Numbered from the stretch's first letter, positions 1,037-56,840 are shown. The stretch: DNA of 64,000 bases from an uncultured virus (IMG/VR IMGVR_UViG_3300030108_000061) (IMGVR_UViG_3300030108_000061), one strand, 5' to 3'. A program made the numbers and translations. Notes: a model not told the origin generated them from the letters alone.

Positions 1037-1887
1037 TTAATCATCCAGCCGAACTAAAGATACATCAGTATCTGGAGAATGCAGCCAATGGTAAGTCAGA
1101 GATGTCTGATGAAACCATTGACCGTGTTGCTTCTGATATTGCTGATGCATTAAAAAGACAGTTTGGCTCTGGCAACAAACGTGATGCCTTTAAACTAAGG
1201 ATGTCCAACATTGGACGTCCTACTTGCCAACTTTGGTTTGATAAAAATAAACCAGAAACAGCATTGCCTAAACCAACTACGTTTGTATTGAATATGATGA
1301 TTGGAGACATAGTTGAGGCAGTCTTTAAAGGTGTTCTTAAAGAGGCTAATGTAGACTTTAAGGATACGAATAGAGTTACCCTTGCAGTGGGAGATATTGA
1401 TGATACATATGTCTCTGGATCTTATGATCTTATTGTAGATGGGGCAGTAGATGATATTAAATCTGCGTCCGATTACAGCTATAAATATAAGTTCGACTCA
1501 TACGAGTCACTAGAAAACAGTGATCCGTTTGGTTATATAAGCCAGCTTGCAGGTTATGCACGTGCTGCAGGTAAAAAACTTGGTGGCTGGTGGGTAATTA
1601 ACAAAGCAAGTGGGCAGTTTAAATATGTCAAGGCAAAAACAGATGTACCTAGACAGATAAATAAAATAAGAGATACGGTTGAATCATTAATTAAAAATGA
1701 TTTCAGTCGGTGTTTTTCCCCTATACCTGAAACGTTCAGGGGGAAAACAACGGGCAACTATATACTTGACGATGGTTGTAAATTTTGCGACTATAGGTTT
1801 GAATGTTGGCCTAGTCTTAGAGAGATACCCTCAAAGGTATCTAAGGCTAAAGTACCACCTATTGTTCAATACGTAGAAAAGGAGTAG
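1033..1887 (+). CDS. PD-(D/E)xK / Cas4-like exonuclease (copy 1)
   Basis: LRMSNIGRPxCQLW, GSYD...DDIKS, QLAGY and CKFCDYRFECW motifs. Confidence 0.75.
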   Translation: MINHPAELKIHQYLENAANGKSEMSDETIDRVASDIADALKRQFGSGNKRDAFKLRMSNIGRPTCQLWFDKNKPETALPKPTTFVLNMMIGDIVEAVFKGVLKEANVDFKDTNRVTLAVGDIDDTYVSGSYDLIVDGAVDDIKSASDYSYKYKFDSYESLENSDPFGYISQLAGYARAAGKKLGGWWVINKASGQFKYVKAKTDVPRQINKIRDTVESLIKNDFSRCFSPIPETFRGKTTGNYILDDGCKFCDYRFECWPSLREIPSKVSKAKVPPIVQYVEKE

Positions 1888-3263: not shown

Positions 3264-3266
3264 ATA

Positions 3267-5028: not shown

Positions 5029-5041
5029 AAGGAGTGACTAA

Positions 5042-30480: not shown

Positions 30481-32055
30481 TTAATATCCAAACACTGAAT
30501 CTGCAACTTGCATCCCTTGTGATGGTACGCCCATGGGATCATAATCAAATATACTAAATCGTGGTCTTGACATTATACCGTATCTTAGTGCATCGTACAA
30601 GTGATCTTCTGATGCGGTATCAATATCTTCAGGATTCTTTTTATCAATAGGCAAAGCTGGCAATTGAGATATTAGATTTGTACAAGTATTAAAAAATACT
30701 AATCTAGGTTCTTCTGTAAACTCATCCACCTGCAAACGTCTGTGTACTTCATTTTTTCCTGCAACTCTAGAGCCTTTTGATCTATCAGAGGGACGCCATC
30801 TACATCCTCTTATAATCATCTGTTCAGCAAGAGTAGGACCAGTATCGCCCCTACGATGCCACAAAGAAGAATCCAAAACTCCATATTTAATATTTCCATC
30901 TCCTGCCTCTAGATCTAGCACCATATCCGCTAAATCTGTAGCAAGAATTTTACTTACGTATAGTTCTCTGTAAACAACTAACTGCTCACTTGGAGATACT
31001 GCAAACCAAATCACCCCTGATTTACTACCATAACCATAGTCACAAGCTCTAAACTTTACCCAATTATTAGGTATATCATATGGCTCTACTACATGTATCT
31101 TTCTATCAAACTCTGTAAACGCTGCACCTTCTTTAATATCCCAATCACCGTCTAGTAACTGTCTACGTTGTTGTTCAGGCAACGATAGTAGCATTGCCTC
31201 ATAGTCACCTTGATTGGCTAGGTAAGGATTATCGGTAAGACGGGCAGGTATAAACCTACGCTTGAATAAAGGTTTGCCAGCTTTCGCATGTCCAGCAGGA
31301 TAACGTAAAACCTCACCCGTTTCAATATCCGTAGCATTAAAAGACTCTCCATGCGGTGCAGGATCAATAAACATTTTTTTGACCCAATGATGGCCCCGAC
31401 CTCCTGGGTTAGTAGTTGCCCTCATGTATACGGGCAGGTCGGGTGCAGTGGACCGTAGACGTGATCTCATGTAGTTCCACGAAAAGGGTGAAGGCCACTG
31501 AGTTAACTCGTCAAAGCCTATCCAGCTAAATGCTAGACCTTGGTATCGCAGGACGTCATCTTCCCTGTCTAGGTAGGACATCCACAATCTCGCACCAGAG
31601 GGCGCGGTCCACTGCATTTTTCGTTCAGACCACTTAATACCTTTCCAAATCTTAGGGTACATCTCCTGTGATTTAAATATAAGTTCTCTAAGTTCTTCTG
31701 TGGTATGACGTAAAAGTAACCCTGAAAAATCTGGATGTCCCATATATCGTAGAGGATCAGCTAACATTGCGTATGACTTACCACCACCAGCCGAACCACC
31801 ATATAATACTTCACGTTCACCTGCTGCAAGAAAGTCTGTCTGGGGGCCATCGTTAGGTTTAAAAACTACGTTGTGCTGTTCTTCTACAGGTATTTCAGTT
31901 AATATAGTGTTAGGCTGCGTCTGCGCTGTCCTCTTTCTTTTTACTGTCGATTCTTTTTTGTTCAAGGGCTTCCGCTTTGGCGATTGCCTTTTTCGCATAT
32001 TCTGCCCATCTGCGTAGGCTTCTAGCTTTGTTGTTCCTTGTTCGCTCATTATCAA
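30481..32055 (-). CDS. terL: Terminase large subunit (exact start uncertain)
   Basis: Walker A YGGSAGGGKS, Walker B IGFDE, ATTNPGG, nuclease-domain DYG and DHLYDALRY. Confidence 0.95.
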   Translation of the reverse strand: MIMSEQGTTKLEAYADGQNMRKRQSPKRKPLNKKESTVKRKRTAQTQPNTILTEIPVEEQHNVVFKPNDGPQTDFLAAGEREVLYGGSAGGGKSYAMLADPLRYMGHPDFSGLLLRHTTEELRELIFKSQEMYPKIWKGIKWSERKMQWTAPSGARLWMSYLDREDDVLRYQGLAFSWIGFDELTQWPSPFSWNYMRSRLRSTAPDLPVYMRATTNPGGRGHHWVKKMFIDPAPHGESFNATDIETGEVLRYPAGHAKAGKPLFKRRFIPARLTDNPYLANQGDYEAMLLSLPEQQRRQLLDGDWDIKEGAAFTEFDRKIHVVEPYDIPNNWVKFRACDYGYGSKSGVIWFAVSPSEQLVVYRELYVSKILATDLADMVLDLEAGDGNIKYGVLDSSLWHRRGDTGPTLAEQMIIRGCRWRPSDRSKGSRVAGKNEVHRRLQVDEFTEEPRLVFFNTCTNLISQLPALPIDKKNPEDIDTASEDHLYDALRYGIMSRPRFSIFDYDPMGVPSQGMQVADSVFGY

Positions 32056-32326
32056 GCCGCTTCCTTAATCCTACATGAGAAATATACCTACCTGTATTTT
32101 TAGATAGCCAGTTAGCAACTTCACGATATGAATATTGCTTTAAATATTTCTTAGCCTGTTGTAACTTATCTAGCTGGTCGGGTATAGGTGCTAGAACATC
32201 ATTATCTTCAGGGTGTAGTTCATAGCCAAACGGGACAGTTCGTGCGATGCGAGGGATTTCTATCCACTCATTGTCTTCTTGTATATCTGTTGGTTGAGGT
32301 AATTTCCAACGTCCTGTTTTAATCAA
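31910..32326 (-). CDS. Putative HTH DNA-binding protein in the packaging module
   Basis: RTVPFGY and YSYREVANWL...GRYISHVGLRKR. Confidence 0.6.
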   Translation of the reverse strand: MIKTGRWKLPQPTDIQEDNEWIEIPRIARTVPFGYELHPEDNDVLAPIPDQLDKLQQAKKYLKQYSYREVANWLSKNTGRYISHVGLRKRLDNERTRNNKARSLRRWAEYAKKAIAKAEALEQKRIDSKKKEDSADAA

Positions 32327-32691
32327 TCTTCTTCTACCTGTTTAGGTGGCATAAGCATAACTCCACCCTTTGCTTCCACTTGCATTTTCTCTGTCTTAAC
32401 AAGACCTGTGCGGTCTAACAACTCTTTTGCTGCTTGCATCTTATCACGTATACCTAACTCTGTTGGGTCCATTAGTGCTCCTACCATTGCAACTGCTGCA
32501 CGTGGTGCATTACGTGACATATACATTTGTGTAGCTTCAAGTATCTCTTCTTTTAAACTATTAACAATGTGTGTAGTAGATGTAGTCTCAGCATAGCCAG
32601 CTAGTTTTTTAGCTTGAGCCACACTACCTGCTGCCTGATCAAACAATGCATCTAAAAACTTTTGTTGTTGTTCTGTTAATTTTCTAGCCAT
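32323..32691 (-). CDS. Putative terminase small subunit
   Basis: LTEQQQKFLD..F...A...AGY N-terminus, AAKELLDRTG, C-terminal LMPPK. Confidence 0.6.
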   Translation of the reverse strand: MARKLTEQQQKFLDALFDQAAGSVAQAKKLAGYAETTSTTHIVNSLKEEILEATQMYMSRNAPRAAVAMVGALMDPTELGIRDKMQAAKELLDRTGLVKTEKMQVEAKGGVMLMPPKQVEED

Positions 32692-38398: not shown

Positions 38399-38603
38399 CA
38401 GTCCACCCCTCTGCCCTCATAGCCCACTCTACATGTTCCAAAGTAAACGGTCTGCCATAATAATTCTGTACAGCTTCACGAACATAAAAGACATCACTGT
38501 GGGGAATGTGTAGATTTTCAATGTTATTGTTGAGTACGTGCTTATAGAACTCATCAAGAACATTATCTGTGTATAGTTTTACTGATTTTTTAGGCATTGT
38601 CAA
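38367..38603 (-). CDS. Hypothetical protein, first gene of the late arm (likely start ATG 38597)
   Basis: LHIPHSDVFYVR; overlaps a promoter-like sequence. Confidence 0.55.
   Translation of the reverse strand: MTMPKKSVKLYTDNVLDEFYKHVLNNNIENLHIPHSDVFYVREAVQNYYGRPFTLEHVEWAMRAEGWTDGDKEREKVT
38576..38603 (-). promoter_or_regulatory. Promoter-like element
   Basis: TTGACA-N16-TAAAACTATA. Confidence 0.55.
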
Positions 38604-38609
38604 TACTTA

Positions 38610-39440
38610 TTTATAAAAAATACTAATTTATATCACTTAACATACAGTTTAAGTGTTATCATTGTACGTGATTTAGCTAATGTATTTATAAAGTAAGTTA
38701 ATGTAGCGTTATAAATGTATCATTGTACGTGATACAGTTAAAGTGTAGGCCACCAAAAACTGTTATATATAGTTTTACACATTCTAAGACCCCTGTCAAT
38801 CCCTAAAATACATTTAATCACATTATTGTAACAATTGTAACGTATTGTGATATACATTCTATATGTAAACCACTATATATGTAATGTGGTTAACACTCTA
38901 TTTTTCCAGATCTGTGTGTATACTCATGCACATATCTACGTACCCCCGTGTGGCCCCTGCACGTACGCACACATGACGTGTGTCTGGGCGCATGACAGGC
39001 ACTTGCAGCGCAGGTGAAAGCGCATAATGCGTGACCATCCACCATGCTACAGAAAAACCCTTTACTTTCAGTAACATATTAACCACCGACAACTGTTATG
39101 CAATCAGTTGCCATGCTAAAGCATGAAAAAAAGGGTGGGATTTTCACGGTGGGGCTGTGTTGTAAGGCCGATGCACAAACTACTACACCCCTACGGGGTG
39201 GGGTGTCCAATGTTGGACAGTAGAACAAACAGTGAACTAGCCTCACGAGTTTCGCGCACGAACTGCGGTATCGAAGATACCTGTAGTCACACGGGAAACG
39301 GCAAGCGCAGAGGATCGCGTGAGGTCACTTTCAACAACTCTATCTACTAATGTTACACAGATAATTTCTATCTCTCCCTTTAGGGTGAGAGAGATATAAA
39401 TTCTCTTAAGTGTAACAGTAGATAGAGAAAGGGCCAAACC
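38610..39440. other. Non-coding divergence region; candidate genome termini/origin
   Basis: Gene orientation switches here; AT-rich repeat block followed by a GC-richer block; no convincing ORF. Confidence 0.6.
38772..38799 (-). promoter_or_regulatory. Promoter for the late arm
   Basis: TTGACA-N16-TAAAACTATA in the intergenic region. Confidence 0.7.
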
Positions 39441-40040
39441 ATGGCAAACTCAACAGCAAAACCACAAGTTGAAGGTACTTCAATCAAAGCTGATCAGGAT
39501 GAAGGCAAAGCCTTGTTACGGATTTGGAACCAGACTAACAGTCTGAAGAACACCATAAAACCTAACGGTTTTGATACTAGGCTGGGTAAACTTCTTCAGA
39601 AGTTGAAGGCTCAGTCACCACTAGATAGTGGTCAGATTAGCCGCCAGACTTTGACAACATACCATGTTGACAAGATTGATCGTCGTAGACGGTCTGAGGC
39701 TCTGTGGTTCGTTGAAAACGAAGTTGAGATCCGTGACTTCATCAAAGCCTCTGGCTTCAAAGGTTCATCCCTCACAGCTTTACAAGCTGCAATGCGTAAA
39801 GCTGCCAAAGGCAGTGAGCCACAAGCTGAACAACCTGCTAAAGCAGAACCGTCCAATGTTGGACAATCTGAACCTACAGAACAGCCAAAGGCTGAACGCC
39901 CTAAGATCACCCAGAGTGTAATGGTAAATACCATTGTTAAGCAAGCTCATCTTAATAACCTTGATCTCGAAGAGATTGTTCTTGATCTCATGGCGGTTCT
40001 TGAGAACCGTCAAAAGGGTAATGCAAAGGCGGCAGCATGA
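39441..40040 (+). CDS. First early protein, unknown function
   Basis: 199 aa; IDRRRRSEALWF; ends AKAAA. Confidence 0.75.
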   Translation: MANSTAKPQVEGTSIKADQDEGKALLRIWNQTNSLKNTIKPNGFDTRLGKLLQKLKAQSPLDSGQISRQTLTTYHVDKIDRRRRSEALWFVENEVEIRDFIKASGFKGSSLTALQAAMRKAAKGSEPQAEQPAKAEPSNVGQSEPTEQPKAERPKITQSVMVNTIVKQAHLNNLDLEEIVLDLMAVLENRQKGNAKAAA

Positions 40041-40276
40041 TCCACCGTCACACACATCAAACCAGTGTTAGGTATCTTATACCTAGCACTAAACGTGGCC
40101 TTGCACAGTGGCAGCTTGATGCAGCTACTGAACAATTCTATGAATTGGCTGCGCAGGAAACAAACCGTCCAATATTGGACACTTTGAATGAGATCACCAG
40201 ATCGCCTGAAGAAATGTACAGACGATCACCTACACTTGTTCATGACAGTGGATGGAAGGACGTAAGCAATGAATAA
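40037..40276 (+). CDS. Early hypothetical protein
   Basis: ATGA overlap with the upstream stop. Confidence 0.55.
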   Translation: MIHRHTHQTSVRYLIPSTKRGLAQWQLDAATEQFYELAAQETNRPILDTLNEITRSPEEMYRRSPTLVHDSGWKDVSNE

Positions 40277-40421
40277 AACATTATATGTTGTTATTGTGCT
40301 TGATAATAATGAGCCTTACGTATGGGCTGATTATCTAAGCATAGATGATGCCAATTGTTCAGCTATGGAAGCTGCCCATGAAACAGGTTTTAACTGTATA
40401 GTTAGAACAGTTAATATATAA
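40269..40421 (+). CDS. Early hypothetical protein, 50 aa (not in ORF track)
   Basis: RBS AAGGA; MNKTLYVVIVLDNNEPYVWADY... Confidence 0.5.
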   Translation: MNKTLYVVIVLDNNEPYVWADYLSIDDANCSAMEAAHETGFNCIVRTVNI

Positions 40422-40434
40422 TTGAGGATGTAAC

Positions 40435-40566
40435 ATGACTAGACGTGAGATCAAACGTATGAACCGTAACCGAGCCATAGGCTGGTTCTTCTTAGGTGTA
40501 AGCTGGACTGCTTTTGCCATCTTATTAGCCTCAATGCCGATGATTTACGAATTAATTGTCTTATAG
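40435..40566 (+). CDS. Early single-TM protein, 43 aa (not in ORF track)
   Basis: RBS GAGG; basic N-terminus then a hydrophobic stretch. Confidence 0.55.
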   Translation: MTRREIKRMNRNRAIGWFFLGVSWTAFAILLASMPMIYELIVL

Positions 40567-40605
40567 TTATATAACACTTGACTATTTATGAAAGTGTTAT
40601 ATAAC
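40566..40605 (+). promoter_or_regulatory. Promoter embedded in a 14-bp inverted repeat
   Basis: GTTATATAACACTT-N12-AAGTGTTATATAAC containing TTGACT-N16-TATAAC. Confidence 0.6.
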
Positions 40606-40635
40606 ATATATAGACATTAACAATGGAGTTTTGAA

Positions 40636-40905
40636 ATGATTAGCCGATTTGACGTAGTTTTTCAAGAATACAGTGATGCCTACAAATCGTATCACGGTGT
40701 TCGTCCTCGTATTTGGAACGCAAGTTCCATCGAAGAAATGGAGGAATGGACTAATCGTTATTACGATTGGATCGCAGAAGATCTGGCACAAGAACGTGCC
40801 GATGAGGATGCAAGCATAAATGCTTGTATGGAAGCTGGTGCACCTGACATAGACACTGCAATGCGGTGGCTTGAAGATGCCAATATCCACTCACAGTGGG
40901 TTTAA
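40636..40905 (+). CDS. Early hypothetical protein
   Basis: YSDAYKS.HGVRPR motif and GAPDIDTAMRWL; RBS GGAG. Confidence 0.75.
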   Translation: MISRFDVVFQEYSDAYKSYHGVRPRIWNASSIEEMEEWTNRYYDWIAEDLAQERADEDASINACMEAGAPDIDTAMRWLEDANIHSQWV

Positions 40906-40947
40906 TTAAAACCGTCCAATGTTGGACACTTTACAAGGAACTTGTAG

Positions 40948-41634
40948 ATGACTTACCAAGTACATACCACAATCAAATCTAATAACCGTAAGGTTGGCAA
41001 GATACCTGTGACCACTACAAGTGCAGCTACCTGCCCTGATGCTTGCCCTTTTAACAATGCAAACGAAGGTGGTTGCTATGCAAATGGTGGGCCACTTGCT
41101 ATGCACTGGGCAAAGGTAACACGTGGTGAACGTGGTGATGGTTGGCATACTTTTATTGCCAAGGTTACTACCTTCAAGGACGGTCAGTTGTGGCGTCACA
41201 ACCAAGCAGGTGATCTGGCAGGTGATGGCAAACGTCTAGATGCCAAAGCAAACGATCAGCTTGCTGATGCCAACACTGGCAAACGTGGCTTCACCTATAC
41301 TCACTATCCTGTATTGACTAGCAAGCATAATGCAAAGGTAGTCAAACGCATGAATGAGAAAGGTTTTGTGGTCAATCTGTCAGCCAACAATGTTAAACAT
41401 GCAGATGCACTGTATGACTTGGGCATTGGACCTGTAGCAACTGTGTTGCCAGAAACACAAACCACCAATACCACTACACCTAAAGGTCGTAAGGTAATTG
41501 TTTGCCCTGCCACAGTCAAAGACGATGTGTCATGTGCAACATGTCAACTGTGTGCTAGGAAACGTGATGCAATCATTGGCTTCCCTGCACATGGATCAAG
41601 TAAACGCAAAGCTGATAAGGTAGCAGCAGCATGA
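40948..41634 (+). CDS. Conserved Cys-rich early protein (Gp88-like)
   Basis: TCPDACPF...GCYA, WRHNQAGD, FTYTH and CPA......CATCQLC motifs. Confidence 0.7.
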   Translation: MTYQVHTTIKSNNRKVGKIPVTTTSAATCPDACPFNNANEGGCYANGGPLAMHWAKVTRGERGDGWHTFIAKVTTFKDGQLWRHNQAGDLAGDGKRLDAKANDQLADANTGKRGFTYTHYPVLTSKHNAKVVKRMNEKGFVVNLSANNVKHADALYDLGIGPVATVLPETQTTNTTTPKGRKVIVCPATVKDDVSCATCQLCARKRDAIIGFPAHGSSKRKADKVAAA

Positions 41635-41786
41635 AACAAACTGTAACATATCGTAATCCTGTGGCTAAAGCCATGCTACAGGAACGCAAGTCGCCACAGG
41701 TCGTGCCACCCAAAAAGGGTGGTAAGGCTAAACGTAACCGCAAACAGGAGAAACTACATGCGATACGAGATCAAGAACTTCGTTAA
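41631..41786 (+). CDS. Small basic protein, 51 aa, weakly ArfA-like (not in ORF track)
   Basis: RNPVAKAML....PQVVPPKKGGKAKRNRK; ATGA coupled to the upstream gene. Confidence 0.55.
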   Translation: MKQTVTYRNPVAKAMLQERKSPQVVPPKKGGKAKRNRKQEKLHAIRDQELR

Positions 41787-41901
41787 GTTTACTAAACGAA
41801 AAGTGTCCAATGTTGGACAGAAACCCAAACGTGACGATTGGAAACGTAATCGTAAGATCGCACGTCAAACTAAAATTAACCTTCGTAAATCAGTAGCGTA
41901 A
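41758..41901 (+). CDS. Small basic early protein
   Basis: RBS AGGAG before ATG 41758. Confidence 0.55.
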   Translation: MRYEIKNFVKFTKRKVSNVGQKPKRDDWKRNRKIARQTKINLRKSVA

Positions 41902-41915
41902 AAGGAGCTATCAAA

Positions 41916-42257
41916 ATGACAAACTCAAACGACATCATTGCACCCAAAGTAAAAGCAGCCCACCCAGAACTGTATGCAGAGCATACGTTTCACATGAAGA
42001 AAGCTGTATCTTACACATACAATTACACTGTAATTGATGAGGTGATCCTTGAGTGTTGGGATGAAATGACAATGGCAGAGATAGCATTTGCGCTAAACGA
42101 ATACCCTAATCGTATTGAATATCGTGTGCAAGTTCTTAAGACCCTTGGCATGATTAAGGGCAAGTACAATATGGAACGTGCCAATCTAAAACGTCAACGT
42201 AAAGAGGCTGTTACATGGCTAAAAGATATTGACAGTAAACTGGCACAGTGTTCATAG
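41916..42257 (+). CDS. Putative HTH protein
   Basis: MTMAEIAFALNEYPNRIEYRVQVL resembles a helix-turn-helix; RBS AAGGAG. Confidence 0.55.
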   Translation: MTNSNDIIAPKVKAAHPELYAEHTFHMKKAVSYTYNYTVIDEVILECWDEMTMAEIAFALNEYPNRIEYRVQVLKTLGMIKGKYNMERANLKRQRKEAVTWLKDIDSKLAQCS

Positions 42258-42420
42258 CCTTAGCTGGAATTGTTGCATACCTGTTGGTGCTCCTTACCGT
42301 TGGTAGTGGATCATCAGCAGGTTTTAATATAAAACAAATAGACGCAATGGATTTATGGATAATTTACTTTCAAGTAATTATCATAGTACAAGTATTGCGT
42401 TATCTGAAAGGTAAAATGTA

Positions 42421-42621
42421 ATGCACGGAATGAACATGAATAATATTGTTTTACATCATGGTGATAGAGTTATATCTATTGCTCAACACAAAGACGAATC
42501 GGGTACGGTTGTATGCTCCGAAATGCTTGACATAACGGATGGGTATGATAAAGATCCAATACAATTTGTCGATTCGACCAAGTCTTTTTTAGATGCTTTA
42601 GAGGAGATCATGTTAACATGA
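42421..42621 (+). CDS. Early hypothetical protein
   Basis: ORF coupled to the downstream gene. Confidence 0.55.
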   Translation: MHGMNMNNIVLHHGDRVISIAQHKDESGTVVCSEMLDITDGYDKDPIQFVDSTKSFLDALEEIMLT

Positions 42622-42992
42622 GAGTAGAAGTATACTTCAACCTACACAAACACACATTTTCTATTCGTTCTTGTAAGACAGGCAAGGTAATGTGTCATGC
42701 TGATCGTGTGCACATCAAAGACCCTGAGTTTGTGGTACGTCAATCAGGACGTGAACGTGTGTTACGTGAAGGCAAGAAGAATGTTCATGCCTTTGTACGT
42801 GGTGAGGCTACGTGCTTCACAGACTTTGAGTACGAAAAGTGTCCAACATTGGACAGTATTCGATACAATCCCTACAAATATGCAGGTTTCGTAAGAATGC
42901 CTGACGAAAAACTAGTACACAGTGCTGATCGTGCATATATGCAGGTCAGTGATGGTAGACCATCTATACATGCAAAAGGAGTAAACGATTGA
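42618..42992 (+). CDS. Conserved phage hypothetical protein
   Basis: VYFNLHK..FS, GRERVLREGKKNVHAFV.G and YNPYK motifs. Confidence 0.75.
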   Translation: MRVEVYFNLHKHTFSIRSCKTGKVMCHADRVHIKDPEFVVRQSGRERVLREGKKNVHAFVRGEATCFTDFEYEKCPTLDSIRYNPYKYAGFVRMPDEKLVHSADRAYMQVSDGRPSIHAKGVND

Positions 42993-43225
42993 CGATTAAA
43001 TCATACGAGATTACTTTACGGATTAATGGTATGGATAGTAGTATCACATTAGATGATACCTTTCCTTCCGTTGAAGATTGGATAAGTGCTTGCAACATGG
43101 CAGTGCTTATGGCAAAGCATGTGCACCCAAGCAAAGAGATAGAGTTTGTCTCTTGCTCAGAGTACATTGACGATATATACGAGGACTTTGATTACATTGC
43201 CCCTGCCTCATTCACAATACATTAA
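42989..43225 (+). CDS. Early hypothetical protein (TTG start)
   Basis: RBS AAGGAG upstream. Confidence 0.55.
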   Translation: MTIKSYEITLRINGMDSSITLDDTFPSVEDWISACNMAVLMAKHVHPSKEIEFVSCSEYIDDIYEDFDYIAPASFTIH

Positions 43226-43236
43226 GGAGAATACCT

Positions 43237-43596
43237 ATGGAAGCTAAGATTAAACTAACTAAGACGATGCTAGACAAGAGCATTATAGATGCCAACAAAA
43301 CTGTGCAAAAGTTTTTGCTAGAAGATTTTGGAATGGATTATAATAATCAGTTCTTTGTTGATCGCAATAAATTTATTATAACTGGTGAATATGGTGATGG
43401 CACAGAGGCCAATGTCACCTTCTATCGCACTGGCACACGTGGAGACAAACGTATCAGCATACAAAAGTTAAAACAGTATGCCGATGTAGGTGATGAGGTA
43501 AGTCTATCATCTGACAGTGAGGATGTTCTAGGTGGTGATGGGATGCGGATCTTTATCCAAGTTCATAGGCCACTGGAAAATGACGATGCTGCTTAG
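43237..43596 (+). CDS. Small protein resembling a stand-alone DNA-recognition domain of restriction-enzyme-like proteins
   Basis: LTKTMLDKSIIDA...FYR..TRGDKRI...LKQYA..GD; RBS AAGGAG. Confidence 0.5.
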   Translation: MEAKIKLTKTMLDKSIIDANKTVQKFLLEDFGMDYNNQFFVDRNKFIITGEYGDGTEANVTFYRTGTRGDKRISIQKLKQYADVGDEVSLSSDSEDVLGGDGMRIFIQVHRPLENDDAA

Positions 43597-43981
43597 TGCA
43601 GCTTTGACATGTCTGGCGTTGAATATTTATCACGAGGCACGTAATGATACAGACACAGGTCAATATGCTGTAGCACACGTGGTGTTGAATCGTGTGCAGC
43701 ATGACAGATGGCCTGACGATGTGTGCAAGGTTGTCAAACAAGGCTATCACAAAGGCAAGCACAAGTGTCAGTTCAGTTGGTATTGTGACGGTAAGTCAGA
43801 CAAGCCTTATGAGGAAGTGTCTTGGGCAAAGGCTATACTTGTGGCTAATGATGTATTGTCAGGTATAGCTGACGATGTGACACATGGTGCTACGCACTAT
43901 CATGCACGATATGTCAAGCCCTATTGGGCTAAACACTTGACTAAAACTGTGGCTATTGGGTCACACATATACTATAAATAG
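43532..43981 (+). CDS. SleB-like cell wall hydrolase (Hydrolase_2); true start probably near 43580-43586
   Basis: CLALNIYHEAR, VAHVVLNRV, CQFSWYCDG, GATHYHA.YV.PYW and HIYY motifs. Confidence 0.9.
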   Translation: MVMGCGSLSKFIGHWKMTMLLSAALTCLALNIYHEARNDTDTGQYAVAHVVLNRVQHDRWPDDVCKVVKQGYHKGKHKCQFSWYCDGKSDKPYEEVSWAKAILVANDVLSGIADDVTHGATHYHARYVKPYWAKHLTKTVAIGSHIYYK

Positions 43982-44061
43982 CTTATCGTTACTAGTATAG
44001 GGATGATAGGTGTGATATAACACGGCATCAGTTGCCATAATCAAATGAAAAGGAGATCAAT

Positions 44062-44931
44062 ATGCCATTTGATATTACAAATTTTGACAATTCAAACAGT
44101 AAACCTTTCGATGTTCCACACTATCTGGACTTCCCTGTGGAGTTTGAACCCACTAAAGTGAAGGACAAGAAGTATGTTATCAACGGAGAGACAGGCGACT
44201 ACCTTGGTGTAGTCGGTGATAAGTTTACCTGTGCATCACATGGTGACTTCTATCGTGGTGTCTATGACACAATCACTGAAAACCTAATGCCAGAAGAGAT
44301 GATGAATGCACAGTTTACGTGGCGGTCTGCCCGTAACAATGCGTGGTCTATGTTAGACATCTCATTACCTGATATGCAGGTAGAGATTAGCACAGATAAT
44401 CATACAACTACGTTGGGCAATCGTATCATCTCATTACATGGTATTGATGGATCATGCAGCAATCAAGCATTCTTTGGTGCTATTGATTACTTTTGTACCA
44501 ATGGGCAGATCCGTGGTGAGTACGACAAAGTGCGTAAGAAGAATACATCCAACTTTACACTGGATGGTTTTATCTACGAACTAAGACGTGCGAGAACTGA
44601 CTTCTATGAAGAGACTGCCAAGATGCAGGTGTGGGCGCAGACTTCCACAAAGTATGTGGACATACAGTCTTTGCTTGAGGAGATGATTTCTTCCAAACGT
44701 AAGGCAGAGAAAATGTTTAGTCTGTACTGTGCAGAGGCAAGCACACGTGGTCACAACAAGTGGGCATTGTATTCTGCCTTTACCAACTATGCCAGCTATG
44801 CTGATGAACGTAACGGGTTTAACCTGCGCAACACTGGCAATGATACACGTGCTATCAGCATGTTCAGCCGTGAGCAAGAGGTAAGCAAGTGGGTATCGGA
44901 TGATCGTTTCATCCAGTTGGAAGCTGCTTAA
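44062..44931 (+). CDS. DUF932-family protein
   Basis: LGVVG..F....H, HGIDGS, FCTNG and WALYSAFTNYAS motifs. Confidence 0.7.
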   Translation: MPFDITNFDNSNSKPFDVPHYLDFPVEFEPTKVKDKKYVINGETGDYLGVVGDKFTCASHGDFYRGVYDTITENLMPEEMMNAQFTWRSARNNAWSMLDISLPDMQVEISTDNHTTTLGNRIISLHGIDGSCSNQAFFGAIDYFCTNGQIRGEYDKVRKKNTSNFTLDGFIYELRRARTDFYEETAKMQVWAQTSTKYVDIQSLLEEMISSKRKAEKMFSLYCAEASTRGHNKWALYSAFTNYASYADERNGFNLRNTGNDTRAISMFSREQEVSKWVSDDRFIQLEAA

Positions 44932-46067
44932 TGCCAAGGCTACCACGGTATGTACAAGAACGAGTGTCACCTTCTGGTGGCATCTCGTATCGTTTTAATC
45001 CACCACAGATACTAGTGGACGAAGGTGTAGTAAAAAGAGAGTCTTACGGGTCAGACTTAAAGCAGGTTCGTAAGATCGTCAAGCAACACAATGAAAACAT
45101 TGACAAATGGAGAGAAGAGCAGTTGATGACTGTTCGTATGAACAAGGTCACAGATCTGATCAACTTTTATTATCAATCTAATGATTTCAGTATGTTACGT
45201 GATACAACTAAAGTGGATTACCGATACTTCCTGACCATCTTGCACCAGACTATGGGCTGGCGTAAGTATGACAAGATTACACCTAAAATTGCCAAGCAAG
45301 CCTATGAAGATTGGGTTAGACGTGGCATCAGCTTTGCCAATCATGCAGCTACTTGTGCTAGTAGAGTATACAACTATGCAATAATGATGGAGTATGCTAC
45401 GCAGAATCCTTGGGCTAATATCAAACGCAAGACTAGTAAGCAACGTAAGGTTACGTGGTCACACGGTGAGATCATCAAGTTCCTTGACATGGCCTATACA
45501 GATTTTGAGTACAGGAACATAGGACTAATAGTCCAAATGGCTTACGAGTGGTGTCAGAGGTTAGGAGACATGCGCAATTTACAGTGGGACAATATAGACT
45601 TTACCTACGGTAGATTAGAACTAGAGCAAAGCAAACGCAGGGCAGAGGTAAGTCTGCCTATATCTGGTAATCTATTGCACATGTTACGAGAACAACGTGA
45701 AGACTTTGGATTCCAAAAATACGTAGCTCCACATCCTAGACCTGTGAACGGGGTGTACAGTCCGTATGCTATGGAACGGCTATCTAAGGTAGGTAGACGG
45801 GTCATGCGACTAGCTGGTTTACCAGAAGAGTTAAGACTTATGGACATACGTAGAACAGGAGTAACACAAATGGATAAGGAAGGTGTGCCGATTAACCAGA
45901 TTATGTCTGTTACAGGGCATAGCCATATGGCCTCTGTAAAGCCTTATTTAAAGCATTCTTATGATAGCGCAAACAGTGCCTTGACAATGCGCAATGTAAG
46001 TGTATCCTTGAGTGAAACGAACAACATAGAAAGTGATACATATGAGTGTAAGAAATATAATCAATGA
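44931..46067 (+). CDS. int: Tyrosine integrase/recombinase
   Basis: QRLGDM (R), QSKR (K), DIRRT (HxxR variant), TGH and downstream Y. Confidence 0.88.
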   Translation: MPRLPRYVQERVSPSGGISYRFNPPQILVDEGVVKRESYGSDLKQVRKIVKQHNENIDKWREEQLMTVRMNKVTDLINFYYQSNDFSMLRDTTKVDYRYFLTILHQTMGWRKYDKITPKIAKQAYEDWVRRGISFANHAATCASRVYNYAIMMEYATQNPWANIKRKTSKQRKVTWSHGEIIKFLDMAYTDFEYRNIGLIVQMAYEWCQRLGDMRNLQWDNIDFTYGRLELEQSKRRAEVSLPISGNLLHMLREQREDFGFQKYVAPHPRPVNGVYSPYAMERLSKVGRRVMRLAGLPEELRLMDIRRTGVTQMDKEGVPINQIMSVTGHSHMASVKPYLKHSYDSANSALTMRNVSVSLSETNNIESDTYECKKYNQ

Positions 46068-46833
46068 CATATCACTTAGTAATGGTGAGACAAAACGTAT
46101 GAACTGCCCTGAGTGTGGTGGCTACAAGACGTTTACCATTACAAACAATATGGGATCATTGTTGTGGAACTGCTACAAGGCAGGGTGTTCTGTGTCTGGG
46201 GGTAAACGTGTGCACCTATCTGCCGATGATATACGTAACTCCCTTGGTAGTGTTGCCAAAGAGACACACTCTGTAGGTTTTGAAAAACCTGATTGGATTG
46301 TAAAAGACTACAAAGCTATTGAGCATTTCTGTGTTCAGTGGGATATTGACCCCAACAAGTTGGGTCTGTTGTATGATGTGAAAGAACATCGTGTAGTGTT
46401 CCCTATTATGCAGGGCAATGTCATGGTAGATGCTACGGGACGTAGTTTGTCAAAAAGATTGCCTAAGTGGAAAAGATATGGAAAAAGTATGTTGCCATAC
46501 TCGTATGGTTGTGGTACAACTGCTGTAGTTGTTGAGGACTGTGTGAGTGCAGCTATTGTTGGTGCGACAGACAGACTTGGATGCTCTAGTGGTGGTGTAT
46601 ATGTCGGGGTAGCAGTGTTGGGTACATCACTATCGGAGGTACATAAGCAGTACTTATCACAGTTCTCAACGGCAGTGATTGCCCTAGACCCCGATGCCCT
46701 ACCAAAGACACTGGCTATTGCAAAAGAATTACGTGGTCATGTATCTAACGTAAAGGTGCTACGACTGCATGACGATCTAAAGTATCGTTACCAAACCGAC
46801 TTCGACGATTTACAACACTTAGGAGAAACATAA
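46033..46833 (+). CDS. DNA primase (zinc finger + TOPRIM)
   Basis: CPECGG...WNCYKAGC, VVVED and ALDPDA motifs. Confidence 0.85.
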   Translation: MIHMSVRNIINDISLSNGETKRMNCPECGGYKTFTITNNMGSLLWNCYKAGCSVSGGKRVHLSADDIRNSLGSVAKETHSVGFEKPDWIVKDYKAIEHFCVQWDIDPNKLGLLYDVKEHRVVFPIMQGNVMVDATGRSLSKRLPKWKRYGKSMLPYSYGCGTTAVVVEDCVSAAIVGATDRLGCSSGGVYVGVAVLGTSLSEVHKQYLSQFSTAVIALDPDALPKTLAIAKELRGHVSNVKVLRLHDDLKYRYQTDFDDLQHLGET

Positions 46834-48057
46834 ATGGAATTATCACTTGTACGTAGTTTGATGGACAAAGAGTTCTACGATGAGCATCGTGGTGCTAGAT
46901 GTCCTGACAGACTATTCAGTAAAGATGTACGTAAGATCAAGCAGTCTATTGATACTGCTATGGATCGTTATGAACGTACCGTAACACCAGATGAGATTGA
47001 AGCCCTGTTCATGGCTAACAATCCCACACTTACCACTGCACAAAAACAAGCATACTCACACTTGTTTATGCAAGTTAAACGTGAGACACCTATGGGCGGT
47101 GACGTAGCACAAGAGGTGCTATCTAAACTATTCCAACAAGTGGTGGGAGAGGACATTGCAAACCTTGGGTTTGACTATGTAAATGGTGACAAGTCTAGTC
47201 TTGAGCCACTACGTAATTTGCTTGAGCAATATGGTGATGACTTCACTCCAAACCTAAAGGTTGAGTGGGAAGACATTAGTCTTGATACTATACTTGCAAT
47301 GACTGACCTTGAGTCACAGTGGACATTTAACATACCCACACTTACTCGCAAAGTAGAGGGTGTAAATGCAGGTCACTTGATTGAGGTGGGTGCAAGACCA
47401 AACACAGGCAAGACCTCATTCCATGCCTCTCTTGTTGCCAGTGAGGGTGGTTTTGCATGGCAAGGTGCTAAATGTATTGTGTTGTGTAATGAAGAGGCTC
47501 ATTGGCGTGTAGCCCATCGTTACATTACAGCAGCTACAAACATGGACAAGCACAAAGTCAGTAAAAATAAAGATGTAGCTATGCGTGTATTTGATCAGAT
47601 ACGTAGTAAAATTATGTTTAAAGATTCATCTGGACGTGACATGAATTGGGTAGAGTCTGTGTGTAAATCATACAAGCCAGACATTGTGATCCTAGACATG
47701 GGTGACAAGTTTGCTAGGACTAGTGGCTTTGCTAGACCTGATGAAGCACTCAAGGCTAATGCTGTACATGCTAGGCAGATTGCCAAGCAGCATAATTGTG
47801 CTATCTTTTACATGTCTCAGCTATCGGCTGATGCAGAGGGTAAGGTCGTACTAAACCAAGCCATGATGGAAGGTAGTCGTACAGGTAAGGCAGCAGAGGC
47901 AGATCTAATGATTATGATTAGCAAGAACCCTACGGTAGAGGGGCAAGAAGAAGAGGATAATATGAGACACATTAACATTGTTAAAAACAAGTTGTCTGGT
48001 TGGCATGGCATAGTGCACTGTGACCTAGACTATCACACTGCGAGGTACATCCCATGA
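46834..48057 (+). CDS. Replicative SF4 (DnaB/T7 gp4-like) helicase
   Basis: Walker A GARPNTGKTS, NEE, ILD, SQLS and KNK motifs. Confidence 0.92.
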   Translation: MELSLVRSLMDKEFYDEHRGARCPDRLFSKDVRKIKQSIDTAMDRYERTVTPDEIEALFMANNPTLTTAQKQAYSHLFMQVKRETPMGGDVAQEVLSKLFQQVVGEDIANLGFDYVNGDKSSLEPLRNLLEQYGDDFTPNLKVEWEDISLDTILAMTDLESQWTFNIPTLTRKVEGVNAGHLIEVGARPNTGKTSFHASLVASEGGFAWQGAKCIVLCNEEAHWRVAHRYITAATNMDKHKVSKNKDVAMRVFDQIRSKIMFKDSSGRDMNWVESVCKSYKPDIVILDMGDKFARTSGFARPDEALKANAVHARQIAKQHNCAIFYMSQLSADAEGKVVLNQAMMEGSRTGKAAEADLMIMISKNPTVEGQEEEDNMRHINIVKNKLSGWHGIVHCDLDYHTARYIP

Positions 48058-48470
48058 AAAAATATCTTGATAAAATGCCTGATTTTTGTCTTAGTCACTG
48101 GCTTTTAAGAATACCCTTGGCTATTGTATTCATACAACAAGGTCTGTCTAAGTTCCCGATTACTGCTGACGACGCTAGTGCTTTCGATTTACCTTACATT
48201 GTGTGGTGGTTTGCGGCATACGGAGAGTTAGGGGCAGGTATAGGACTACTAGTGGGTGGTCTAATATCTTTTACCTACCTACACTTAGACCACCCTTGGG
48301 TAGAAGATATAGTAACAAGGTTTAGTGGTATAGTTATATGCTGTATTATGACAGGTGTGATATGGGTGGGCGAACCTGATAGCCTGTTGGATGTGTTACT
48401 ATATGATAACTTACATGTGTTATTGTGGGTTGGTGGTTTGTTCTTTGCACTCAGAGGTAGACTAGCATGA
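48054..48470 (+). CDS. DoxX-family membrane protein
   Basis: LLRIPLAIVFIQQGLSKF...AYGELGAGIGLLVG...TRFSG; four TM segments. Confidence 0.7.
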   Translation: MKKYLDKMPDFCLSHWLLRIPLAIVFIQQGLSKFPITADDASAFDLPYIVWWFAAYGELGAGIGLLVGGLISFTYLHLDHPWVEDIVTRFSGIVICCIMTGVIWVGEPDSLLDVLLYDNLHVLLWVGGLFFALRGRLA

Positions 48471-48737
48471 GAAGGTTTGACACCGTTGAATGCCCTTGGT
48501 GCAAAGAAATATTTAACTGGAAAAAGCATAATACTTGCCCACACTGCAAGGATAAATACCAGTGTGTTAGTTGTGGAGCACCAACTAAGAATACATGGTG
48601 CAGTTTTTGTTTGGAGGAAGAATGATGAGTGAACAATATCACATAAAGGGTGCCTTTGGTGCCTTCCTAGTGTGTGCCTTTTTAATTTTAGGTGTACCAA
48701 TAATACTTAACCTTTTATTTTGGCCTGATATAGGTGT

Positions 48738-49025
48738 TTGGAGTTTCTTACGATGAAGTGGTATGCAATAGTATTCTTTTTATCTTGGAATGAAGATGGA
48801 ACAAGAGACACGTTTGTGTTTACAAACCCAGTTTATAATACTGAGGCTGAATGTAGGGTTACACTCACTGACAGAACAAGCATAATGAATTATGTGCATG
48901 GATTAATGGTCTTCTACAATGGTATGCTACCTGGTGCAGTAGAGATGGTTAACTGCATAGATCAAAATGAGTTTGATGAACTTCAAGGATTGAAAAACCA
49001 ACAGGAGGGTAAAGTTGACGCCTAG
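48738..49025 (+). CDS. Hypothetical protein with hydrophobic N-terminus and two Cys (likely start ATG 48753)
   Basis: RBS GGAG before MKWYAIVFFL. Confidence 0.55.
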   Translation: MEFLTMKWYAIVFFLSWNEDGTRDTFVFTNPVYNTEAECRVTLTDRTSIMNYVHGLMVFYNGMLPGAVEMVNCIDQNEFDELQGLKNQQEGKVDA

Positions 49026-49230
49026 AGAAGCAGCACAAATAGAAGCAGAAAAAACTTTCGACTTGTTTATTCTGTGGTCAAAGAGGGCTTTCATTTACAG
49101 CACTATATTTTTGATGGTGGTTGTATTTGGTTGTAATAATGGTGTTGAAACAGGGCCAGATAAGTCAGGCTCTCAGTATAACGGTGAAGCATACTCACCA
49201 ATGAACTTAAATGCAAAGGATAAAAAATGA
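49015..49230 (+). CDS. Small membrane protein / possible lipoprotein
   Basis: TM segment ending VVFGCN; RBS GGAGG. Confidence 0.55.
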   Translation: MTPREAAQIEAEKTFDLFILWSKRAFIYSTIFLMVVVFGCNNGVETGPDKSGSQYNGEAYSPMNLNAKDKK

Positions 49231-49580
49231 GTAACAAATTAAAGGTTGTACCTTTGAGCATTGTTAGTATCTTTGATTTATTCAAAGAGACATGGAACAG
49301 TGTGATGACAATACAGGATTCTCCGTTGCGTCACATTCAAAGACTAGACCCGATGGCTGCACATGCAGTATTTCAAATACTAGCTTACATGTGGAGTGCA
49401 ATCTTTGCACTATGGATAGGTAACATGTTCTGGTTTGCAATCAGTGGGATGGGCCACTCTTTGGTAATCGGTGGCATATTTATTACTGCAATGGTTTATA
49501 AGGAAGCTGAGAAAAACTCTAAGGTAGATCCCACCGACAATGTAACCAGTGGCAGAATGTTTGGTGGAGAGCACGATTGA
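49227..49580 (+). CDS. Conserved membrane protein
   Basis: WNSVM....SPL.HI......H...Q.LA.MW..IF pattern; two TM segments. Confidence 0.65.
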   Translation: MSNKLKVVPLSIVSIFDLFKETWNSVMTIQDSPLRHIQRLDPMAAHAVFQILAYMWSAIFALWIGNMFWFAISGMGHSLVIGGIFITAMVYKEAEKNSKVDPTDNVTSGRMFGGEHD

Positions 49581-49589
49581 GGATTAATA

Positions 49590-49838
49590 ATGATACGACC
49601 AATGACAGACAAGGAACGACAAAGAGCAAAGGAGAAACAAGTAATGAACACGGCAAGCATGAGTGCAGAGATTCAGTTGTATAACGCAATGACTCGTAAT
49701 AAGCTGAACATAAAAGAGGCGATAGAAGCTATGAATCGTTATGCAAATGACAAGGACTTCCAAAAACAGCTTGACGATTATTATGGAAGTGAGCTATACA
49801 TAGCTGACGACTTTGAAGAAGTAACATCAGACCATTAG
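49590..49838 (+). CDS. Hypothetical protein
   Basis: RBS GAGG; MIRPMT..ER. Confidence 0.6.
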   Translation: MIRPMTDKERQRAKEKQVMNTASMSAEIQLYNAMTRNKLNIKEAIEAMNRYANDKDFQKQLDDYYGSELYIADDFEEVTSDH

Positions 49839-49845
49839 GAGAACA

Positions 49846-51897: not shown

Positions 51898-51903
51898 TAT
51901 AAC
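51875..51903 (+). promoter_or_regulatory. Sigma70-like promoter (copy 2)
   Basis: TTGACA-N17-TATAACTATA. Confidence 0.75.
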
Positions 51904-51938
51904 TATACATCTGTAACAAAAGAAAAGGAGATACATAT

Positions 51939-52835: not shown

Positions 52836-53692
52836 TCAATCATCCAGCCGAACTAAAGATACATCAGTATCTGGAGAACGCAGCCAATGGTAAGTCAGAG
52901 ATGTCTGACGAAACCATTGACCGTGTTGCTTCTGACGTTGCTGATGCGTTAAAAAGACAGTTTGGCTCTGGCAACAAACGTGATGCCTTTAGACTGAGGA
53001 TGTCCAACATTGGGCGTCCCACTTGCCAGCTTTGGTTTGATAAAAATAAACCTGAAAAGGCATTACCTAAACCGACTACATTTGTAATGAACATGATGAT
53101 CGGAGACATAGTTGAAGCAGTCTTCAAGGGTATTCTTAAAGAGGCTGATGTGGCCTTTAAAGATACCAATAGAGTTAGCCTTGCAGTTGGAGACATTGAT
53201 AGTACTTATATTTCTGGTTCTTATGATCTCATTGTAGATGAAGCGGTGGATGACATTAAGTCTGCGTCTGACTATAGCTACAAACATAAGTTTGATTCGT
53301 ACGAGTCGTTAGAAGAGAGTGATCCGTTTGGTTATATAAGCCAACTTGCAGGTTACGCACGTGCAGCAGGTAAAAAACTTGGTGGTTGGTGGGTAATTAA
53401 CAAGGCAAGCGGTCAATTTAAATATGTAAAGGCAAAGACAGATGTTCCAAGCCAGATAAATAAGATAAGAGATACGGTTGAAACATTAATTAAAAATGAT
53501 TTCAGTCGGTGCTTTTCCCCTATACCCGAAAAGTTTCGGGGGAAAGCAACGGGCAACTATATACTTGACGATAGTTGTAAATTCTGCGACTATAGGTTTG
53601 AGTGTTGGCCTAGCTTAAAAGAGATACCATCACGTGTATCACAAGCTAAAGTGCCACCAATTGTGCAATACGTAGAAAGGAGTGATGAATGA
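52832..53692 (+). CDS. PD-(D/E)xK / Cas4-like exonuclease (copy 2)
   Basis: Homolog of 1033..1887. Confidence 0.75.
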   Translation: MINHPAELKIHQYLENAANGKSEMSDETIDRVASDVADALKRQFGSGNKRDAFRLRMSNIGRPTCQLWFDKNKPEKALPKPTTFVMNMMIGDIVEAVFKGILKEADVAFKDTNRVSLAVGDIDSTYISGSYDLIVDEAVDDIKSASDYSYKHKFDSYESLEESDPFGYISQLAGYARAAGKKLGGWWVINKASGQFKYVKAKTDVPSQINKIRDTVETLIKNDFSRCFSPIPEKFRGKATGNYILDDSCKFCDYRFECWPSLKEIPSRVSQAKVPPIVQYVERSDE

Positions 53693-54368: not shown

Positions 54369-54369
54369 C

Positions 54370-55065: not shown

Positions 55066-55068
55066 ATT

Positions 55069-56826: not shown

Positions 56827-56840
56827 AAAGGAGAACTAAC

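Follow-up and report, generated by a model that had tools for sequence, protein, structure and literature searches.

The early arm of the viral genome represented in a 64,000-nt stretch of DNA from an uncultured virus (IMGVR_UViG_3300030108_000061; hereafter the window, over the whole of which all positions are counted) carries an array of short palindromes, GTCCAANNTTGGAC (GTCCAA-NN-TTGGAC), that we interpret as DNA operators of a homodimer of gp01, the product of the first early gene, which would repress gp01 itself and the first early genes. This full chain, assembled from sequence comparisons and structure models, stands in our view marginally on the probable side, and its parts differ in firmness: that the sites are targets of a specific factor encoded by the phage is very probable, that the target is DNA rather than RNA is quite probable, that the factor reading the sites is gp01 is probable, and that the effect on transcription is negative is moderately probable. 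Binding, the choice of DNA as target and the negative sign of control are all points that we infer; the sites themselves, how they are conserved, their joint change of specificity and its co-variation with gp01 are observed.

The exact motif was detected seven times in the window (39205, 39851, 40167, 40914, 41805, 42841 and 1203), where no copy is expected by chance (0 matches in each of 100 dinucleotide-preserving shuffles). An earlier note on this DNA had listed six exact copies; the exact scan recovered all six, and the copy at 1203 had been overlooked. Six of the seven sites are packed into 3.65 kb (39205–42854) and no exact site lies in the structural arm (6038–38600, minus strand), in agreement with the claim that the sites are not spread evenly over the genome. 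Allowing up to two mismatches added just 53002 (one mismatch) and 6680 (two mismatches), the chance total at that stringency being 1.9. The gaps between the six clustered sites (646, 316, 747, 891 and 1036 bases) match the spacing of roughly 0.3–1 kb given previously.

Motif scans of relatives revealed arrays of like layout at the same place in their early regions, as the note had anticipated. Roseobacter phage CRP-345 contains six exact sites, with none in the ~40 kb between 14482 and 54485, and CRP-1 contains five at places matching those of CRP-345; together these lie upstream of gp01, in gp01, before the gene encoding a DUF7227 protein, in a small basic open reading frame (ORF), in the integrase gene and in a Cas4-like gene. 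Puniceispirillum phage HMO-2011 has no copy of the window motif; instead, at the corresponding position, which spans the origin of its record, GTCCG-NNNN-CGGAC occurs five times within 3.4 kb. A de novo palindrome scan of 80 viral-contig loci with a DUF7227 relative yielded arrays that share a 5-4-5 layout and differ in their arms, with three to nine sites per locus among the relatives. Class A (GTCCA-A..T-TGGAC) comprises the window, CRP-345, CRP-1, L008–L017, L021, L025, L027 and L029; class B (GTCCG-ATGT-CGGAC) was found in L018–L020, class C (GTCCG-ACAG-CGGAC) in HMO-2011, L024 and L026, class D (GTGGT-A..T-ACCAC) in L028, and class E (GTATC-TTRC-GATAC) in L030 and L084. None of the 80 loci whose DUF7227 protein is less than ~62% identical to that of the window contained an array.

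Evidence of a reader comes from genome pairs 72–88% identical in DNA, in which orthologous sites with the same flanks could be compared. Six of the seven sites of L148 and L107 align, and all six carry the same change, A5/T10 to G5/C10; the four aligned sites of L145 and L150 have likewise all switched, as have four sites between L176 and L182, where L176 already has G at one further site. A tree of 81 distinct gp01 sequences puts the number of class changes at seven or more. Because all sites of a genome switch together, beyond what local structure explains, the sequences imply that a trans-acting reader with changed specificity must exist. A few genomes are of mixed class (L176, with the site at 2419, L138 and L183), having either four to five class A sites and one GTCCG site or three GTCCG sites and one of class A; by their sequence, these may be intermediates of a specificity switch.

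The candidate reader is gp01 (39441–40040, plus strand; 199 aa). Array sites always flank this gene or fall within it, and the homologues recovered by an iterated profile search were restricted to classes A, B and C. Co-occurrence was scored in the 66 loci that extend at least 2.3 kb upstream of the DUF7227 gene: 19 carry gp01 together with a GTCC-type array, 47 lack both, and none has one alone, which is a clade-level correlation rather than 66 independent trials. Eight ORF families, each present in at least four class A and at least four class B genomes, were compared, and gp01 alone showed clean class-specific columns outside the site codons (T/S at residue 112, A/K at 116 and R/[ANSY] at 119); one further family, missing from the window, had ragged class differences only, as expected at 33–47% identity. 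At residue 112, class A has Thr (59 of 60 sequences), class B Ser (10 of 10) and class C Lys (7 of 8), and this residue agrees with the site class in 79 of the 81 gp01 sequences. In the three lineages that include close A/B pairs, the class B proteins moreover carry Lys116 and no longer have a basic residue at position 119. In five independent pairs on well-supported branches, residue 112 changed in the same direction in four to five and in the opposite direction in none. All three columns fall in a putative specificity helix (residues 111–122, SLTALQAAMRKA). An Arg-rich helix (residues 81–92; DRRRR versus PKQRR) was rejected as the specificity element, since identical helices occur with both classes and its link to the linker peptide is loose. 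The earlier note had proposed three binders; gp01 is favoured, and the products at 41916 and 43237 fare worse, being missing from 5 and 4, respectively, of 15 class A loci and without a Pfam match.

In the AlphaFold model, gp01 is laid out as a helical N-domain (residues 13–122), a disordered linker (125–154) and a C-terminal helical hairpin (158–198), with a mean predicted local distance difference test score (pLDDT) of 75 over the whole protein, 89 for the N-domain modelled with 71 sequences, and below 50 in the linker, which is hypervariable outside the site that it contains. A symmetric homodimer was predicted (ipSAE 0.81, 0.80 and 0.80, against 0.00 for the best of three controls), with at least 75% of contacts agreeing between runs and a partner pLDDT of at least 74; in calibration, 20 of 30 proteins whose solved structure is a pair of one chain attained this mark, as did 1 of 23 solved as single chains. 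The predicted interface involves residues 18–55, 73–83 and 155–187, and none of residues 111–122 is among the confident contacts.

The gp01 family is large (174 clusters at 50% identity and 2895 at 90%) and has no counterpart in Pfam or PHROGs. Profile searches by sequence against solved structures gave chance-level rows only, Foldseek found no match in the PDB at E ≤ 0.001 for either gp01 model, and among viral models its only annotation-free match was a homologue. The ESM Atlas offered DUF3102 as its only lead, in 29% of the members of one cluster. A single-protein scan with P0143 returned no match, and one with the L021 protein returned only its own contig. In structure comparison, the DNA-binding domain of KorB on its operator (1r71_A) came first for the full model (Z 5.1, root-mean-square deviation (rmsd) 3.9, 91 aligned residues) and second for the N-domain (Z 5.0, rmsd 3.2, 85 aligned), tied with unrelated helical chains; Spo0J (1vz0_A) reached Z 3.9, and Pfam KorB appeared at E 0.099 in 1 of 19 family members. 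The first protein of the class D locus (L028) showed no detectable relationship to gp01 (hhalign probability 0.3), and Pfam scans assigned no family to the proteins adjoining class D and E arrays or to the window products at 41916, 43237 and 40037.

Whether the sites are read as DNA or RNA was approached through a census of 109 array-bearing loci (1.12 Mb including overlaps). The arms are near-invariant: of the unique sites, 322 are exact and 14 have a single arm mismatch, and the latter display no wobble bias on either strand (3 versus 3, and 8 others). The centre is free: the two central bases of the 231 class A sites are TG in 132, CG in 40, CA in 35, GG in 19, CC in 3 and TA in 2. Positions 6 and 9 are A and T in all 231, although they would be unable to pair around a 2-nt loop. 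The symmetry was said in the earlier note to extend into the flanks, and for one pair this is so (−3/+3, symmetric in 57 of 86 unique class A sites against 40.5 expected, the sole clear excess among pairs 1–12); the other pairs do not clearly exceed expectation, and the flanks add no folding energy in comparison with shuffled flanks in classes A–D (mean z per genome −1.2 to +0.7). Five of the seven window sites fold weakly (−6.4 to −9.5 kcal/mol). A conserved loop with a covarying stem, as expected of an RNA hairpin operator, was not seen in class A–D sites.

That pattern is instead displayed by the class E elements, which have flank-shuffle z values of about −5 and covarying outer stems (CTCTA/TAGAG, CTGTA/TACAG, CCATA/TATGG, TTACA/TGTAA and ATGTA/TACAT). 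In each, one arm of an outer stem that varies in sequence is followed by a constant GTAGA bulge and a GTATC-TTRC-GATAC inner hairpin, after which the second arm closes the outer stem; six different outer stems covary, and the elements always lie upstream of a gene start (L030 at 8106, 8483, 9390, 10698 and 11284; L084 at 7449, 7723, 8598 and 10293). By sequence, class E is an element of another kind that occupies the corresponding position in more distant relatives. Conserved-loop modules of the early region covary in the same manner. Because the arms of class A–D sites are invariant and the centre free, while true hairpins in these phages look the opposite, the sites look like duplex DNA recognised by a symmetric dimer, which fits better than an RNA hairpin. 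The earlier proposal of a dimeric, sequence-specific protein that acts on the sites as DNA is supported, though indirectly.

The sign of control is suggested by where the sites lie in relatives. A module of the form CACTTGA-N7-9-GTGAAAGTG, followed by TTATATAAC or TATTACAC, reads as a −35 element (TTGAnn), a spacer of 16–17 nt and a −10 element (TATAAC or TACACT). In 20 of 28 plus-strand modules of class A–C loci, a palindrome of the genome's own class follows 24–40 nt after GTGAAAGTG, and then come a Shine-Dalgarno sequence and ATG. A protein on such a palindrome would sit at about +10 to +37, a repressing position, and negative control is the likeliest role because sites in relatives fall between the promoter-like module and the ribosome-binding site. 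Among the roles suggested in the earlier note, repression of the roadblock or operator type is therefore the best fit to site position.

The mechanism that we propose is as follows. The gp01 protein would be produced first after infection, and each subunit would read one GTCCA half-site through helix 111–122, Thr112 corresponding to A at base 5 and Ser112 or Lys112 to G. Occupied sites would lie in the gp01 leader, in gp01 itself, in the intervals from promoter-like module to ribosome-binding site, and within a small number of early genes, where bound gp01 would stop RNA polymerase as transcription starts or soon afterwards, promoter-proximal sites acting as operators and intragenic sites as roadblocks. 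In this way gp01 would regulate its own gene and shut off the first 4 kb of early genes, or keep this region silent in a lysogen.

Several observations weigh against this interpretation. With respect to gp01, two of the 81 sequences (L026 and L177) are discordant at residue 112; the sign test on the five independent pairs is non-significant (median p 0.125), n = 5 being too few; and residue 112 lies ~75 nt from the internal site, so that linkage contributes to the correlation, although from the sequences linkage with that site does not explain the agreement of all the others. The fold searches gave no clear DNA-binding assignment, and the KorB-like fold suggested by the model is a lead only, at a score level common for helical proteins. 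With respect to promoters, the only full module of the window (at 40575) has no palindrome after it, only site 4 (40914) of the window is close to a gene start, and the arms of the module, a putative promoter, covary in a hairpin-like fashion. With respect to the target, the centre is strand-biased (TG 132 versus CA 35; GG 19 versus CC 3), the class C centre ACAG is kept in one orientation (33 versus 2), which a symmetric DNA reader would not predict, and the change from A5–T10 to G5–C10 also has the look of a compensatory stem change. Descent of duplicated modules of site and ribosome-binding site, together with coding constraint (SNVG requires AAY GTT), can explain the bias of the centre; it also fits a role at the RNA level.

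The principal rival is accordingly an RNA hairpin, with a 5-bp stem and a tetraloop, formed in early transcripts and bound by a phage protein (gp01 or a different one) that controls translation, mRNA stability or antitermination, much as lambda N does with nut or as translational operators do. Besides the strand-biased centre and the single orientation of ACAG, it can draw on the many sites of relatives that lie in 5′ untranslated regions 2–10 nt before the Shine-Dalgarno sequence, the A-rich flanks on both sides in the sense strand of classes B and D, the real covarying hairpins in the same early regions, the U–G wobble pair retained by the 53002 variant, and an invariant Arg-Arg pair in a helix of gp01. 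We consider it unlikely, as invariant arms around a variable 'loop' are the reverse of RNA hairpin recognition, the one-mismatch sites lack wobble bias, positions 6 and 9 stay complementary though unpairable around a 2-nt loop, flanks bring no stability to hairpins of which five out of seven are weak, four of the seven window sites lie deep in coding sequence, and gp01 is predicted to be a symmetric homodimer.

No more probable is a structural nucleoprotein array, KorB/ParB-like or nucleoid-like, that would bridge or mark the genome's early end and act in the initiation of replication, in packaging, in partitioning a prophage-plasmid or in controlling DNA entry. KorB has 12 operator (OB) sites on the plasmids RK2/RP4. 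The dispersal of sites at 0.3–1 kb, some of them intragenic, would suit such an array, as would its position adjoining the divergent intergenic region (38600–39440) and the KorB DNA-binding domain as the best, though weak, fold match of gp01. The KorB–OB system of IncP-1 plasmids RK2/RP4 resembles the present one in its dimer and in a short dispersed palindrome found near promoters or kilobases away (PMC11790492, PMC5577506), and the domain order of KorB, from helical DNA-binding domain through disordered linker to dimerisation domain (PMC5577506), is that of gp01 in its model. The location of the gp01 class-tracking residues, in the last helix of the domain and not in the Arg-rich helix 81–92, is a further likeness. 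KorB works as a CTP-dependent sliding clamp. In contrast, gp01 has neither a ParB/Srx CTP-binding domain nor a beta-barrel dimerisation domain, its setting is a phage rather than a plasmid, and no KorA-like partner is known. Pfam scans of gp01 and 19 family members found no ParB/Srx (ParBc) match, and a search for longer fused forms, itself weak evidence, found none, which speaks against the parS-like loading array put forward in the earlier note. Family scans of the early genes also found no partition ATPase, the sites of relatives are tied to gene starts and promoter-like modules, and the terminase genes are distant (30481–32691).

A host transcription factor, with site classes reflecting different hosts, is very improbable: class A isolates infect RCA roseobacters and the class C isolate HMO-2011 infects SAR116, which would agree with such a factor, but the class switches at least seven times among relatives of 72–88% nucleotide identity and tracks a residue of a phage protein, and no array was found without gp01. 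Least probable is that the sites act as weak intrinsic terminators which end antisense transcripts of the early arm, since, although a terminator-like scan flagged four of the six array sites on the minus strand (hairpin and T-rich tail), it flagged none of the six on the sense strand, the stems are weak (5–6 pairs), the T-tail is absent at 39205 and 39851, class C sites lack an A-rich left flank, and terminators would require neither an identical sequence at every site nor concerted switching.

Returning to repression by gp01, the closest known systems in function, by analogy, are the repressor–stoperator systems of Cluster A mycobacteriophages (L5 gp71, Bxb1, Trixie). Stoperators are described as many identical sites in transcribed DNA, mostly outside promoters and some intragenic, that are thought to halt elongating RNA polymerase (PMC6550527), and among heteroimmune Cluster A relatives the site consensus and the repressor are reported to differ together (PMC6550527, PMC9283540). 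The array shares with them identical short sites spread through transcribed phage DNA and the joint change of site and candidate protein. The stoperators described in these sources are 13 bp long, asymmetric, oriented with transcription, read by a two-domain monomer and present in up to ~30 copies per genome on both arms, whereas the sites described here are perfect 5+5 (6+6) palindromes, five to nine per genome and confined to the early arm. The candidate reader is a predicted homodimer of an unrelated, unannotated family encoded by the first gene of the early operon, whereas the Cluster A repressor gene is transcribed separately. The array sites therefore lack the asymmetric, monomer-read 13-bp site that marks Cluster A membership, and share the two features of dispersed operators in general, namely a copy number far above chance and a site and phage protein that change together. 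Similarly, the c repressor of the temperate Streptomyces phage phiC31 binds 17-bp conserved inverted repeats (CIRs) at many places of the early region, intergenic and in some cases intragenic; both its protein family and its host are other than those considered here. The N protein of lambda, an Arg-rich early protein, acts with nut boxB, a short palindromic element in early transcripts, and specificities differ among relatives. The boxB element is read as RNA, has a conserved loop and occurs at two sites per genome; in the present array the centre varies, the arms are invariant and there are five to nine sites.

Phages of the HMO-2011 type rank among the most abundant phage groups in seawater, and descriptions of a regulatory circuit in them are not known. 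What appears to be new is a dispersed-operator regulon in this globally abundant group, with a candidate regulator family of unknown fold, and the natural record of specificity switching seems unusually clear. Palindromes, promoters and repressors receive no mention in the main text of the two main genome papers on the group (PMC9038755, PMC6918029), and literature combining HMO-2011 with the term palindromic had no title, in a survey of titles, on a site array in these phages. The analysis supplies a defined cis-element, a candidate regulator of an unannotated family, a residue-to-base rule and a natural switch series. If gp01 is indeed a repressor, it would fill the place of the immunity or early shut-off function that is missing from the integrase-bearing subgroups, and cross-regulation among co-occurring phages could be predicted from site class. 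Orthogonal pairs of DNA-binding protein and operator could also be drawn from this compact system. A bolder, tentative possibility, which we rate below the repressor model, is that gp01 and the palindromes form an immunity or exclusion code that has been reset repeatedly by one or a few changes in one helix, after which all operators of the genome were rewritten symmetrically. Co-circulating relatives would in that case be blind to each other's regulator, the array would record an ongoing arms race of phage against phage, and gp01 would belong to a new family of compact, dimeric DNA readers whose residue-to-base rule is simple and can be transferred.

The individual sites of the window occupy varied places. 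Site 1 (39205..39218, GTCCAATGTTGGAC) lies in a long leader, 236 nt upstream of the gp01 start codon; its orthologue was found upstream of gp01 in 15 of 15 aligned genomes, 152–456 nt before the start (217–302 nt in 13), always of the same class as the remaining sites of its own genome. Site 2 (39851..39864) is inside gp01, in the disordered linker, and its codons read SNVGQ in class A. Because class B encodes SDVGQ at this place, the amino acids evidently follow the DNA motif. Site 3 (40167..40180, GTCCAATATTGGAC) is inside the ORF 40037–40276 and is orthologous in L008, L016 and L029. Site 4 (40914..40927) falls between genes, with the start codon of the DUF7227 gene (40948–41634) 21 nt further on, and this slot is the most widely conserved in class A; in L010 and L014 its orthologue comes directly after a promoter-like module. 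Site 5 (41805..41818) is inside a small basic ORF (41719/41759–41901), where it encodes VSNVGQ, the N codon being changed to D in class B relatives. Site 6 (42841..42854, GTCCAACATTGGAC) falls within a gene for an L5 gp82-like protein (42618–42992). The peptides reported earlier for the four intragenic sites of the cluster (PSNVGQ, RPILDT, VSNVGQ and CPTLDS) proved correct, with frame offsets of 2, 1, 2 and 1.

Site 7 (1203..1216) is exact and lies inside a Cas4-like PD-(D/E)XK exonuclease gene (1033–1887) in the other genome copy of the window; its orthologue in CRP-345 (14469) is also exact. The decayed homologue at 53002..53015 (GTCCAACATTGGGC) is broken by one synonymous change (GGA to GGG), both copies encoding MSNIGRP, and CRP-1 carries the same variant at 13621. 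The integrase genes of CRP-345, CRP-1, L010 and L012–L015 contain an exact site (GTCCAAGGTTGGAC), the window orthologue of which (45782–45795) has decayed to five mismatches.

Site 5 lies among overlapping, small and very basic ORFs (41631–41786 and 41759–41901) that are conserved in classes A–D, with the consensus sequences NPVAKA..RR....VPDK.KYNRKKDK and KP..KRD.W...NK.K...R and a weak match to DUF7230 (E 0.009). The product of the first of these ORFs presumably resembles the ribosome-rescue factor ArfA. A 369-aa ORF in the early arm of a class B locus (L020, 9262–10371) resembles, on visual inspection of its N-terminal motif, a cytosine-C5 DNA methyltransferase.

The only full copy of the promoter-like inverted-repeat module in the window (40575..40606, plus strand) consists of CACTTGACTATTTATGAAAGTG followed by TTATATAAC, and an extra gene (40636–40905) separates it from site 4. 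Across the copies at 40575–40606 and 39370–39396 and those of relatives, the centre is near-constant (GAAyTTTAGTGA or CCTTTAGGGT) and the arms covary (ACACTT/AAGTGT, CCCCTT/AAGGGG, CCCTCT/AGAGGG and TCTCTC/GAGAGA); the left-arm sequence often recurs just downstream, making two alternative hairpins possible. From its sequence, the module could be a sigma-70-like or CTTGAA-type promoter, or an attenuator-like RNA or DNA hairpin. A sigma-70 scan of the region found 21 promoter-like sites against 20.3 expected, hence no enrichment, and no fixed distance between these and the window sites.

The leader of gp01 (39000..39440, plus strand; ~440 nt) is conserved across classes A–C and, in an alignment of 15 genomes, comprises a module variant (39000–39022), site 1, covarying hairpins and the module-like hairpin 39370–39396. 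It also contains an invariant element, CAACTGTTATGNAATCAGTTGCCA (~39089–39112), and a GC-rich stretch (~39240–39325) forming a hairpin stem with compensatory changes between genomes (GGTATCGAAGATACC, GTAATCTTAGATTAC, GGAATAAC..GTTATTCC). The leader has no Rfam match and, judging from these features, may be an unrecognised structured RNA. Over 38400–43400 the best Rfam match was 25 bits against a threshold of 47 bits, and a scan of the array region found no tRNA genes.

By its matches, the window is nearest to Roseobacter phages CRP-345 (74% identity) and CRP-1 (71%), HMO-2011 being more distant, and because of these matches it is assigned to the HMO-2011-type podophages. The early and replication arm (39441–57767, plus strand) encodes gp01, the DUF7227 protein, the L5 gp82-like protein, a cell-wall hydrolase, a DUF932 protein and an integrase, as well as a primase, DnaB helicase, DNA polymerase A, the Cas4-like nuclease, endonuclease I and a ribonucleotide reductase. 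Genes of the structural arm are on the minus strand, between ~38600 and 6038. Segments 9–5046 and 51808–56845 are 88.6% identical, and 5671–6031 and 57491–57852 are 85.5% identical. Because its ends are 88.6% identical without being the same, the window appears to hold ~1.2 genome lengths made of two variant copies, with a period of ~51.8 kb, and it looks like a join of two strain variants in a chimeric or concatemer-like assembly. Runs of N occur at 4438–4447 and 15281–15290.

The integrase-bearing subgroups of these phages are those with arrays, and the relative CRP-3 is reported to integrate into a host tRNA-Met gene (PMC6918029). A prophage search of 64 bacterial-genome loci with DUF7227 relatives found no gp01 homologue and no GTCC array. 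One Verrucomicrobiota metagenome-assembled contig with a DUF7227 relative (L189) contains a CRISPR-like array of 36 repeats with a period of ~73 bp (16717–19309). Finally, the divergent intergenic region between the arms of the window carries two copies of TATCATTGTACGTGAT (38656–38672 and 38718–38734), a sequence with the partial palindrome ATCAnnGTACnnTGAT; this repeat may be a second operator or an origin element.

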